Positions 20,060 to 46,978 of a stretch of DNA of 64,000 bases are shown one piece after another. Below the pieces are notes generated by a model, which saw nothing but the letters and a program-made list of their open reading frames with translations, ran no database searches and was not told the origin of the DNA. Origin of the DNA: Escherichia coli (GTDB taxonomy: Bacteria; Pseudomonadota; Gammaproteobacteria; Enterobacterales; Enterobacteriaceae); the NCBI RefSeq assembly GCF_003334385.1, contig NZ_QOWN01000015.1; one strand, written 5' to 3'. Numbering within the stretch: position 1 is the first letter of the stretch; each line of letters opens with the position of its first letter. Position numbers and translations under genes: made by a program.

Positions 20060-20875
20060 TCAGCTGTTAAAAGGGGATGTGTTATCCAGCACCGCCTGAA
20101 TCACATTCAGCGCGCCTTCATGATTATTATCATCGGTAGCGTAACGGGCGATTTGTTTAATGTTTTCCGCAGCATTGCCCATCGCAAAGGAATAACGCGC
20201 CATTTTCAGCATCTCCGCATCGTTACCGCTGTCGCCAATCGCTACCACATTTTGCGGTGACAGATCCCAGCGTTTCAGTAACCGCGAAATACCGTTTGCT
20301 TTATGTAGACCGGGAATAATCAGGTCGATAAAGCCAAAACCACTGGTAACGGGTTTCATAATGCCATCGAGCGCTACGTGCAGTTTGTCGATCACTAACG
20401 GGATTTGTTCATCCGGCAGGTTGAGCGAAAACTTGAACAGTACGTCGTCAATCTCCTGATAATCTTTTACAGGTTTCAGGCGATGGTAGTGTTTTGCCAT
20501 CAGTGCGACAAATGCTTCGGGGGCATTTTCGCTGACATATGCACTTTGCAGACCGCAGGCGACAAAATTGAGTTGCTTATCTTTTAGCAACTCGCCAATA
20601 ACAATCCGCGATTCATGTCGGGTCAGTTCGCCGTGGAACAACTGCTTGCCATGTTCGTAAACCAGTGCGCCGTTTTCCGCGACAAAAGAGATCTCATCCT
20701 TTAGCTCAGGAAAGAATGAAATAAGCTGGTAATACTGATTACCGCTGGCAACAACGAACTTAATGCCGCGCTTTTTCAGTTCCTGATATTGCGCCATAAA
20801 ACGTGGTTGGTTGTACGTTTTGGCGTCGTTAAGAAAAGTACCGTCCATGTCTGTGACGATAACTTTTACGCTCAT
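20060..20875 (-). CDS. ybiV: HAD-superfamily (Cof-type) sugar phosphatase YbiV
   Basis: 271-aa ORF with HAD motif I DMDGTF and C-terminal GDSGND. Confidence 0.9.
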
Positions 20876-20945
20876 AGGTGTGCTCCTGGCTCGAAAATGA
20901 AACCGTAACAGTGTAATAACAATGTGACGCAGAGCACAAATTATA

Positions 20946-20959
20946 TTTCGAATGAAAGT
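20946..20959 (+). promoter_or_regulatory. Copy B of exact 14-bp motif TTTCGAATGAAAGT, 70 nt upstream of ybiV ATG
   Basis: Exact match to copies A and C; lies between ybiW stop and ybiV start. Confidence 0.5.
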
Positions 20960-21020
20960 AAGGATGAAATTGATGATGTGAATGATTTAGCCCGGCGACG
21001 ACGCCGCCGGGCCGAGGAGA

Positions 21021-45786: not shown

Positions 45787-45792
45787 CTCGAA

Positions 45793-46077
45793 TTAATGGT
45801 GATGGTCGTCAATCTGGTGTTCGATAACCATCCCTTCACCTACGCTGGCAAGATGGCGAACATAAGGATGCGGGCGGTAAGCCGGAGCTGGCGCAGGAGC
45901 CACATAGACGGTTTGCGGCACAGTCGCGACGCTGACCGCTTGTGGAACGCTGACTGAATCAGGAACCACAACCACTTTGTATCCACTCGGCACATCGACG
46001 GTGACACTTTGCGCCATCGCCACACCAGTAAAGCCCATTAAAAGCGCGCCCAACAGTAGACAATTTTTCATAATCAT
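45793..46077 (-). CDS. ybjH: Secreted small protein YbjH (94 aa, signal peptide, His-rich C-terminus)
   Basis: ORF with signal peptide MIMKNCLLLGALLMGFTGVAMA; recognised as YbjH. Confidence 0.7.
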   Translation of the reverse strand: MIMKNCLLLGALLMGFTGVAMAQSVTVDVPSGYKVVVVPDSVSVPQAVSVATVPQTVYVAPAPAPAYRPHPYVRHLASVGEGMVIEHQIDDHHH

Positions 46078-46162
46078 TTCGCCTGAAATAATGCAGCGGG
46101 TTAATTTCCGCGAATTATGCAGCCTTCATTCAGGCATTGTGTTGCCGGGCGTGCTGCCGGTT

Positions 46163-46978
46163 TTATTGGTCAAATGGCGCTTCGTGTTTAAGAACTTTAT
46201 CGATCACATCCAGTACGCCTTCACGGTTATTGGAGCCTGCGCGGTATTTTGCCGCTGCGACGACCGCGCTACCGGCATTTTCCATTGCAAAACTAAAGCC
46301 TGCCTGACGCAGCATCTCAATATCGTTACCGCCATCGCCAAAGACCACCACTTCGCTGTCGTCTATTCCCCATAATTTCTGCAGTTGGCGAAGGCCATTG
46401 GCTTTATGTACGCCGGGGATAATCAGATCGATGCTGCCGTTGCCGGTGTGGACCGACACCATAATATCGCCGATGGCCTCATGTAATGCTTTTTGTACTT
46501 GTGGAATCAGTTCATCGGAAAGATTCAGGCCAAACTTAAAGAAGATATCCTCTAAGTTGTCAAAGTTATCGACGTATTCCAGACGGTGATAATACATTTC
46601 CGCCACCGTTTTCATGGCATCGTCATATTTTTTGAGTGTATAGGCACTATTTTTTCCGCAGGCAATAATTTCCACTTCCGGGCGCGTCAGCAAATGTTCC
46701 ACGACAGTAGCAAACGCATCCTTCGATAGCTCGCCATTAAAAACATCTTTGCCTTCGCTCACTACCCAGCCGCCGTTTTCAGCCACAAAGGCAATTTCAT
46801 TAGCAATTTCAGGGAAGAAAGAGATCAACTGATAATATTGATTCCCGCTGGCGACTACAAAGCGAATTCCTTGTGCTTTCATTTGCTGATACTGAGCCAT
46901 AAACCGCTCACGGTTATAGGTTTTTTGATCGCTTAAGAAAGTACCATCCATGTCTACCGCAATTAATTTAATGCTCAT
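46163..46978 (-). CDS. ybjI: HAD-superfamily (Cof-type) phosphatase YbjI, paralog of YbiV
   Basis: 271-aa product from [15 protein letters not shown]; long stretches near-identical to YbiV ([25 protein letters not shown]). Confidence 0.85.
   Translation of the reverse strand: MSIKLIAVDMDGTFLSDQKTYNRERFMAQYQQMKAQGIRFVVASGNQYYQLISFFPEIANEIAFVAENGGWVVSEGKDVFNGELSKDAFATVVEHLLTRPEVEIIACGKNSAYTLKKYDDAMKTVAEMYYHRLEYVDNFDNLEDIFFKFGLNLSDELIPQVQKALHEAIGDIMVSVHTGNGSIDLIIPGVHKANGLRQLQKLWGIDDSEVVVFGDGGNDIEMLRQAGFSFAMENAGSAVVAAAKYRAGSNNREGVLDVIDKVLKHEAPFDQ

Follow-up and report, generated by a model that had tools for sequence, protein, structure and literature searches.

ybiV and ybjI of Escherichia coli: closest Cof-type HAD phosphatase paralogs, each in its own conserved neighbourhood

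The two phosphatase genes

The stretch of DNA analysed here, referred to as the window, comprises 64,000 nucleotides and represents chromosome of the E. coli K-12-like type. Within it lie two genes for Cof-type HAD-IIB phosphatases, both on the minus strand and 26 kb apart: ybiV, also called supH (20060..20875), which encodes a sugar phosphatase, and ybjI (46163..46978), which encodes an ARPP/FMN phosphatase and is the second gene of the ybjJI operon. Both are defined by their open reading frames and by RefSeq annotation, where the products are named sugar-phosphatase and 5-amino-6-(5-phospho-D-ribitylamino)uracil phosphatase, respectively. Each protein is 271 amino acids long; the open reading frame call for ybjI counts 272 residues because a TTG immediately precedes the annotated ATG. 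A full-length BLASTP alignment of YbiV with YbjI gives 139 identical residues out of 270 (51%), 67% positives and no gaps (E 3e-101). The sequence-only reading of this DNA, which had described two co-oriented genes of equal length sharing long near-identical stretches, GDxGND among them, is thus borne out. Both genes are close to universal in complete E. coli genomes, where ybiV is found in 5,425 of 5,426 and ybjI in 5,422 of 5,426.

The family assignment of the two proteins is straightforward. Both pass TIGR00099 (221.3 bits for YbiV and 192.7 for YbjI against a cut-off of 137, with model positions 1-256 of 256 covered) and TIGR01484, the only models that they do pass, and YbjI matches Pfam Hydrolase_3 (PF08282) over positions 1-255 of 255 with an E-value of 3.6e-55. 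The HAD motifs D9-M-D11-G-T13, S44, K192 and G214-D215-x-G-N-D219 are invariant between them, and within these D9, D11, G12, T13, G214, D215, N218 and D219 are invariant in all seven K-12 Cof paralogs. A Mg2+-dependent aspartyl-phosphate mechanism is standard for the HAD superfamily; in YbiV and YbjI Asp9 would act as the nucleophile and Asp11 as the acid/base, with Ser44, Lys192, Asp215 and Asp219 completing the predicted active site. Some 145 residues separate S44 from K192 in both proteins, which corresponds to the C2 cap insertion between motifs II and III, so that YbjI probably shares the C2 cap fold, and this cap would be the element that selects the substrate. Structural data exist for YbiV, which matches PDB entries 1RLM, 1RLO, 1RLT and 2HF2 ('Sugar phosphatase supH') over its full length (residues 1-271, 599.8 bits), and YbjI aligns to 1RLM and 2HF2 over residues 1-270 with 292 bits.

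More specific models do not accommodate the pair. The YcsE-related equivalog NF045966 scores 109.9 bits for YbiV and 99.4 for YbjI, both below its cut-off of 220, and the YidA-type sugar phosphatase model NF007806 scores 80.4 and 88.0 bits, respectively, against a threshold of 273. Eight homologs from outside the family Enterobacteriaceae, including Firmicutes proteins at 45-52% identity, likewise all fail NF045966. Since YbiV, YbjI and the Firmicutes homologs fall short of this model, they appear to form a separate clade, for which no dedicated equivalog model exists.

The ybiV neighbourhood

Upstream of ybiV, on the same strand, lie ybiW (21021..23453), which encodes a glycyl-radical enzyme, and ybiY (23459..24358), which is assigned from annotation and synteny as the gene for the glycyl-radical activating enzyme. 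Divergent from ybiY is fsaA (24489..25151, plus strand), annotated as fructose-6-phosphate aldolase 1 and checked for its start and stop codons. On the downstream side is the DUF1479 gene ybiU (18643..19908, minus strand), a pseudogene in the window owing to a change of W317 to a stop codon at 18958, and directly 3' of the ybiV stop a consensus scan picks out a terminator-like hairpin, ACCGGAGCCGTGCGCTCCGGT, with a T-rich tail (20032..20052, minus strand). The placing of ybiV in a glycyl-radical cluster, as first read from the sequence, therefore stands as far as it adjoins ybiW, with the refinement that a 145-bp spacer lies between the two genes, which are not coupled. Taken with the binding of YciT upstream of ybiV itself, this spacer suggests that ybiV is probably transcribed separately; ybiV, ybiY and fsaA belong to the genes that YciT binds and controls (PMC8464067). 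Adjacency of ybiV and ybiW is found in 33 of 34 Enterobacteriaceae loci, in 32 with the same orientation; in Salmonella diarizonae the orientation of ybiV is reversed with respect to ybiW, and Superficieibacter has kept ybiV without ybiW and ybiY.

Published work makes YbiV a broad sugar-phosphate phosphatase beside the anaerobic anhydroglucitol-6-phosphate pathway of YbiY, YbiW and FsaA. YbiW is reported as the 1,5-anhydroglucitol-6-phosphate-cleaving enzyme in PMC12441222, citing Ma et al., and YbiV is active on psicose-6-P in vivo (PMC10576766). What links YbiV physiologically with the YbiW pathway is association only.

The ybjJI operon and its repressor

Preceding ybjI on the minus strand is ybjJ (46978..48186), which encodes an MFS transporter of 402 amino acids with a Pfam MFS_1 domain; the protein has no match in a search against the PDB. 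The start/stop overlap of the two genes at 46978, which the sequence-only reading had pointed out, can be read directly as TGATG (agtTGATGagc), where the TGA of ybjJ shares one base with the ATG of ybjI, and an overlap of 1, 4 or 11 nt recurs in 30 of 33 Enterobacteriaceae loci. Divergent from ybjJ is rcdA, or ybjK (48270..48806, plus strand), annotated as a TetR-type repressor of ybjJI. It adjoins ybjJ in 30 of 33 loci and is missing from the map of the other three. In the spacer that separates ybjJ from rcdA the palindrome TTGTGTACATTTGTACACAA (48230..48249) is identical to the RcdA footprint sequence of PMC3535384. It was read directly and has a 2-nt centre; a search with an RcdA-box pattern containing a 3-nt spacer gave no match. 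Repression of the ybjJI operon by RcdA has been demonstrated by Northern blot and lacZ fusion experiments (PMC3535384).

With respect to function, YbjI and YigB are described as ARPP and FMN phosphatases of the riboflavin pathway (PMC7017516, PMC8475336), and the activities of YbjI on ARPP/FMN and of YbiV on sugar phosphate are reported in the same two papers, which cite Haase 2013 and Kuznetsova 2006. The earlier view that the two phosphatases have different roles and that ybjI is coupled to the MFS gene is supported, whereas its description of one as metabolic and the other as paired with a transporter is imprecise, as YbjI has a published metabolic role of its own (PMC7017516, PMC8475336).

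The arrangement of the two loci also allows some speculation. When the oxygen-sensitive YbiW is unable to work, YbiV could serve as a relief valve by dephosphorylating 1,5-anhydroglucitol-6-P or 1-deoxyfructose-6-P. The conserved, overlapping ybjJ-ybjI pair under the TetR-type RcdA could represent a dedicated 'dephosphorylate-then-export' module, in which YbjI might strip the phosphate from a ribityl-pyrimidine phosphate (ARPP), a flavin phosphate (FMN) or a toxic phosphorylated analogue and YbjJ might export the product, for instance 5-amino-6-ribitylaminouracil or riboflavin. Taken jointly, these suggestions are improbable.

Conservation across the Enterobacteriaceae

Each gene resides in a conserved neighbourhood of its own in more than 20 genera of Enterobacteriaceae, namely ybiY-ybiW-ybiV-ybiU for the one and rcdA/ybjJ-ybjI/mdfA for the other. 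Both neighbourhoods are present in genera that include Escherichia, Salmonella, Citrobacter, Enterobacter, Klebsiella, Kluyvera, Kosakonia and Pluralibacter, and the spacing between ybiV and ybjI in Enterobacteriaceae genomes is 20-44 kb, often on a single contig. Each copy had thus been fixed in its own neighbourhood already in the common ancestor of the family, and each has been under purifying selection since then. Within the groups, 182 positions of YbiV and 131 of YbjI are at least 90% conserved, while at 20 positions each group conserves a different residue. Compared with the E. coli protein over the same species, YbiV orthologs average 82% identity and YbjI orthologs 74%.

Origin of the pair

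How, then, are the two genes related, and how did they come to lie so close together? Seven Cof-like paralogs of E. coli, ybiV and ybjI among them, are listed in PMC3040653, and one answer would be that the likeness of the two amounts to the HAD/Cof motifs that such family members share. Identity does peak in the N-terminal core (70% over residues 1-80), but it remains at 41% in the cap (residues 81-190) and at 47% in the C-terminal core, within an alignment that is 51% identical and gap-free over 270 residues, whereas identity to Cof, YbhA, YedP, YidA and YigL of K-12 stands at only 16-23%, with many gaps needed. A likeness of motifs only is refuted by these values, and common family membership as the whole explanation is extremely improbable; the low identity outside the HAD core that would have pointed to it is not what the cap region shows. 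As had been proposed, YbiV and YbjI are true paralogs; neither has a closer relative in the genome than the other. Their split is also old, given that synonymous divergence is saturated (pS 0.80, with dN 0.44), third-position identity is down to 38% and both groups sit in conserved synteny. Taken together, ybiV and ybjI are very probably anciently diverged paralogs of one distinct Cof-type HAD-IIB clade, with separate neighbourhoods and separate published roles.

Less clear is whether the pair arose on the spot. In a strict local duplication one ancestral gene of this region would have given rise to a tandem or nearby copy, after which gene insertion or rearrangement moved the two apart and each came to join other neighbours, and such an origin is plausible because the chance that two random loci fall within 26.1 kb on a 4.64-Mb circle is about one in a hundred (P = 0.011). 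Consistent with it are the status of the two genes as closest paralogs on the same strand, the spacing of 20-44 kb kept on single contigs across many genera, and the presence in K-12 of a third Cof paralog, ybhA, just 62 kb farther upstream. Against it, a sister grouping of YbiV and YbjI to the exclusion of the Yersiniaceae and Firmicutes homologs is recovered in just 10% of bootstraps in a neighbour-joining tree, the one tree built, from Kimura-corrected distances and with 80 of more than 505 relatives kept, which samples thinly outside Enterobacteriaceae. In the tree alignment YbjI is 49% identical to YbiV, 53% to the Yersiniaceae homologs and 49% to those of Firmicutes. Nor do the flanks hold a second paralogous pair, as judged by a BLASTP comparison in which nine proteins from the ybiV side and eleven from the ybjI side gave the phosphatases as their sole match, and with dS saturated no nucleotide trace of a duplication is left. 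The position of the ancestral gene cannot be inferred either, since homologs outside the family lie in unrelated contexts: next to 13 of them (from Pantoea, Yersiniaceae, Listeria, Bacillus, Breznakia, Mangrovibacter and further taxa) lie genes for, among others, a siderophore-binding protein, a PTS IIC component, a family-4 glycosidase, maltose O-acetyltransferase and ANT(6), which bear no relation to the partners of ybiV or ybjI, the only exception being a YbjJ homolog upstream in Rahnella (29% identity, E 2e-25).

The YbiV/YbjI clade is common in Firmicutes, and one or both genes may instead have entered the Enterobacteriaceae ancestor by horizontal transfer, for example from that phylum, with their proximity being coincidental or selected. 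The homologs of Listeria, Bacillus and Breznakia (45-52% identical to YbiV, 47-52% to YbjI) are no more distant than YbiV and YbjI are from one another, and the deep branching order of the tree is without resolution. Base composition points the same way, in that the G+C content in E. coli is 46.7% for ybiV and 45.6% for ybjI against 54-55% for their partners, and GC3 is below that of the partners in 29 of 33 loci for ybiV and 31 of 33 for ybjI. However, this gap may come from amino-acid composition, no alternative grouping exceeds 14% bootstrap, and a proximity expected at about 1% by chance would involve the two most similar paralogs. No sign of recent insertion was seen in the comparison of neighbourhoods, although the K-12 flanking proteins used for it were a fixed set and it was blind to mobile-element remnants. 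Separate acquisition is rather unlikely and duplication in place a tentative, if reasonable, proposal, and the present data cannot tell the two apart. Of the old local duplication first suggested for the pair, the age, the paralogy and the closeness hold up, while its local origin is not demonstrated, given the 10% bootstrap and the unduplicated flanks. Should duplication be the correct account, a single gene would have been copied, probably nearby, before the Enterobacteriaceae radiation, to give rise to ybiV and ybjI.

Published work already covers the two genes, the structure of YbiV, the operon with RcdA as repressor and the paralogy inside the E. coli Cof family, and as ordinary, already described paralogs they are of little wider consequence. 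What is added here is that the copies are older than the Enterobacteriaceae radiation and each tied to its own conserved neighbourhood, that the overlap of ybjJ and ybjI is itself conserved (30 of 33 loci), and that a local-duplication origin is plausible but not demonstrable.

Comparison with known systems

The window YbiV is identical to the K-12 protein (SupH; PDB 1RLM, 1RLO, 1RLT, 2HF2), with zero SNPs in ybiV relative to MG1655, and its near-identity together with its position between ybiW and ybiU places it in the YbiV orthologous group. The same applies to ybjI, which is identical to K-12 in the gene itself, its position, its operon partner, the overlap and the RcdA box (PMC3535384, PMC7017516); near-identity to K-12, the ybjJ overlap and the divergent rcdA with its operator assign it to the YbjI orthologous group and the ybjJI operon, and relative to MG1655 ybjJ has one synonymous SNP in the window (G90, GGG to GGA). 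The other K-12 paralogs YidA, YbhA, YigL, Cof and YedP belong to the same TIGR00099 subfamily as YbiV and YbjI, with the same four motifs and a similar length, but their caps are differently structured, so that many gaps are needed to align them, and they have (A/T)TGR where YbiV and YbjI carry a segment of their own. Further afield, the YcsE-type riboflavin-metabolism phosphatases of B. subtilis (NF045966) have the HAD-IIB Cof-type fold in common with the pair and provide the best-scoring equivalog model for both YbiV and YbjI, and according to the literature YcsE and YbjI share activity on ARPP/FMN (PMC8475336).

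Relationship between YbiV and YbjI

The genes ybiV (20060..20875, minus strand; 'sugar-phosphatase YbiV' in RefSeq) and ybjI (46163..46978, minus strand; '5-amino-6-(5-phospho-D-ribitylamino)uracil phosphatase') each encode a protein of 271 amino acids, and the two products align in BLASTP with 139 identities over 270 residues (51%; 67% positives, E 3e-101) and zero gaps. The sequence-only reading had taken them for closely related Cof-type HAD phosphatase paralogs, and the motifs that it quoted are present in both proteins by BLASTP and motif check. The likeness extends well beyond these core motifs, with identities of 70% over residues 1-80, 47% over residues 191-271 and still 41% over residues 81-190, which correspond approximately to the cap. 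The other five K-12 Cof-type paralogs are only 16-23% identical to YbiV (Cof 19%, YbhA 23%, YedP 16%, YidA 23%, YigL 22%), with many gaps across the cap region, which leaves YbiV and YbjI as by far the closest paralogs of one another. The finding is correct and already known, the whole of it being covered by literature or standard annotation; the Cof-like paralogs of E. coli, seven in all and with this pair among them, have been listed as a redundant family (PMC3040653). A third member, ybhA (797613-798431 in NC_000913.3), lies 62 kb upstream of ybiV, outside the window, such that three of the seven K-12 paralogs fall within ~88 kb.

The only models passed by both proteins are the Cof-subfamily model TIGR00099 (YbiV 221 bits, YbjI 193 bits; cut-off 137) and HAD-IIB, and for every equivalog model both score far under the cut-off: 110 and 99 bits, respectively, for the YcsE-related model (cut-off 220), 80 and 88 for the YidA type (273), 68 and 67 for YbhA (274), 43 and 56 for YigL (386) and 44 and 53 for Cof (336). 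In Pfam, YbjI is assigned to Hydrolase_3. All four HAD motifs (D9xD11GT, S44, K192 and GD215xGND219) are invariant, and catalysis by both proteins would be expected to follow the mechanism established for the HAD superfamily. YbiV matches PDB 1RLM/1RLO/1RLT and 2HF2 ('Sugar phosphatase supH') over its full 271 residues at 599.8 bits, whereas YbjI, which is without a solved structure of its own, matches the same chains at 292 bits.

Within the YbiV group 182 positions are at least 90% conserved and within the YbjI group 131, with 89 group-conserved positions carrying the same residue in both and 20 being conserved in each group with differing residues, for example 70-71 (after the ENG motif), 81, 109, 115, 118, 129 and 182. 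Purifying selection acts on both copies, under constraints that differ between them, and YbjI orthologs are the more diverged, averaging 74% identity with the E. coli protein versus 82% for YbiV orthologs of the same species.

Age and origin of the pair

The split had been proposed to be an old local duplication, and its age is borne out. The two genes are 56.8% identical in nucleotide sequence, falling to 38% at third codon positions, with a Nei-Gojobori pS of 0.80, beyond saturation, and a dN of 0.44. Scanning one genome per species (GTDB) gave more than 505 relatives, 80 loci of which were kept and had the K-12 neighbour proteins mapped onto them. YbiV orthologs (75-98% identity) occupy 34 of these loci, 32 of which keep ybiY-ybiW-ybiV in order and co-oriented, mostly followed by ybiU. 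YbjI orthologs (64-96% identity) occupy 33, all with ybjJ directly upstream and nearly all with rcdA and mdfA as well. As these contexts are kept across the sampled Enterobacteriaceae, both copies and their surroundings predate the radiation of the family.

That the pair arose by a local duplication is plausible, in that two random loci would lie within 26.1 kb of each other with a probability of only 0.011, both genes are on the same strand, and their spacing is conserved, at 20-44 kb wherever both share a contig (as in Salmonella, Citrobacter, Enterobacter, Lelliottia, Klebsiella, Kluyvera, Trabulsiella, Pluralibacter and Superficieibacter). However, a number of observations are either against a nearby duplication or neutral towards it. 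Homologs of the same clade are found in Pantoea, Rouxiella, Rahnella, Yersinia, Listeria, Bacillus and Breznakia, these relatives from beyond the Enterobacteriaceae being 45-52% identical to YbiV and 46-56% to YbjI, and the mean identity between YbiV and YbjI (49%) compares with 53% for YbjI and Yersiniaceae, 49% for YbjI and Firmicutes and 45% for YbiV and Firmicutes. A neighbour-joining tree (simple distance correction, 200 bootstraps) recovers the YbiV clade at 100% and the YbjI clade at 78%, but unites the two as sisters to the exclusion of the outside homologs in only 10% of bootstraps, with none of the deep alternative groupings exceeding 14%. The two neighbourhoods share no further paralogous protein pair.

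Both genes are also lower in G+C than their partners (46.7% for ybiV and 45.6% for ybjI in E. coli versus 54-55%), even ybjI despite its overlap with ybjJ, and GC3 is below that of the partners in 29/33 and 31/33 Enterobacteriaceae loci, respectively. This could hint at a foreign origin or could merely reflect amino-acid composition. An origin by duplication is likely and a nearby one plausible, neither being demonstrable with these data.

The ybiV neighbourhood

The window is 99.97% identical to its counterpart in K-12 MG1655 (NC_000913.3, ~839,154-903,153), and ybiV and ybjI show zero differences; the ybiV region is present in 5,425 and the ybjI region in 5,422 of 5,426 complete E. coli genomes. 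The differences comprise 16 SNPs, including ybiW E184K (22904), which many natural strains also carry, and a synonymous one in ybjJ (47917), together with one 1-bp deletion near 6354 in the ybiO-glnQ spacer. Positions 1-74, without a match in MG1655, belong to an IS4-like element (IS421/IS186 type), forming its terminal 74 bp; the element is inserted beside fiu at the ybiX-fiu junction, an arrangement that recurs in 58 of the 5,426 genomes. In ybiU (18643..19908, minus strand) a C-to-T change at 18958 converts codon 317 from TGG (Trp) to TGA, cutting the product to 316 amino acids. The surrounding 121 bp are matched exactly in 0/5,426 genomes (the best having one mismatch), so the change is either private to this source or an error. 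The ybiU segment is itself present in only 4,081 genomes versus 5,425 for ybiV-ybiW.

The ybiV-ybiW spacer is 145 bp in the window and 115-283 bp in most genomes, and a terminator-like hairpin lies just past the ybiV stop codon. Fructose-6-phosphate aldolase 1, FsaA, is reported to take 1-deoxyfructose-6-phosphate as a substrate. This compound is reportedly formed when the glycyl-radical enzyme YbiW cleaves 1,5-anhydroglucitol-6-phosphate, according to a passage of PMC12441222 citing Ma et al., and ybiV, ybiY and fsaA count among the genes bound and regulated by YciT (PMC8464067). The exceptions to the co-oriented ybiY-ybiW-ybiV order are Salmonella enterica subsp. diarizonae, in which ybiV lies in the opposite orientation to ybiW and fsaA is lacking, and Superficieibacter electus, which keeps ybiV between moeB and ybiT with ybiW, ybiY, fsaA and ybiU gone. 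Hence ybiV does not strictly require the glycyl-radical genes.

The ybjJ-ybjI pair and RcdA

The proposed overlap of the ybjJ stop and ybjI start at 46978 holds, one base being shared (agtTGATGagc). In 30/33 loci stop and start likewise overlap, by 1, 4 or 11 nt, the remaining three having a 19-28 nt spacer that contains GGAGG. YbjJ belongs to MFS_1 in Pfam and has neither an NCBIfam family nor a PDB relative. Of the homologs examined outside the Enterobacteriaceae, only that of Rahnella inusitata shows a YbjJ-type pairing, in which a distant YbjJ homolog (4657-5898 of its locus; 29% identity, E 2e-25) directly precedes a YbjI-like phosphatase (6001-6819; 46% identity), a distant echo of the transporter pairing; the others have unrelated neighbours.

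YbjI, together with YigB, dephosphorylates the riboflavin-pathway intermediate ARPP and FMN, single deletions not being auxotrophic (PMC7017516; PMC8475336), and ybjI overexpression lowered the riboflavin output of a producer strain by 89.6% (PMC11731478). Between ybjJ and the divergent rcdA, the palindrome TTGTGTACATTTGTACACAA (48230-48249) is the RcdA sequence footprinted in PMC3535384, which also shows derepression of the 'ybjJI operon' when rcdA is mutated. An ionic liquid induces ybjJ (PMC4077768), and evolution for ionic-liquid tolerance yields loss-of-function mutations in rcdA, in a study that describes ybjJ as the MFS pump under RcdA control (PMC5691611). In three natural E. coli strains (NZ_CM169477.1, NZ_CP066366.1 and NZ_OZ501671.1) an IS1 splits the match to ybjH-ybjI-ybjJ-rcdA (45700-48900) in two, the interrupted gene appearing to be rcdA in the first and ybjI in the second. 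These splits echo the IS insertions that rcdA acquired when tolerance to ionic liquids was evolved in the laboratory (PMC5691611).
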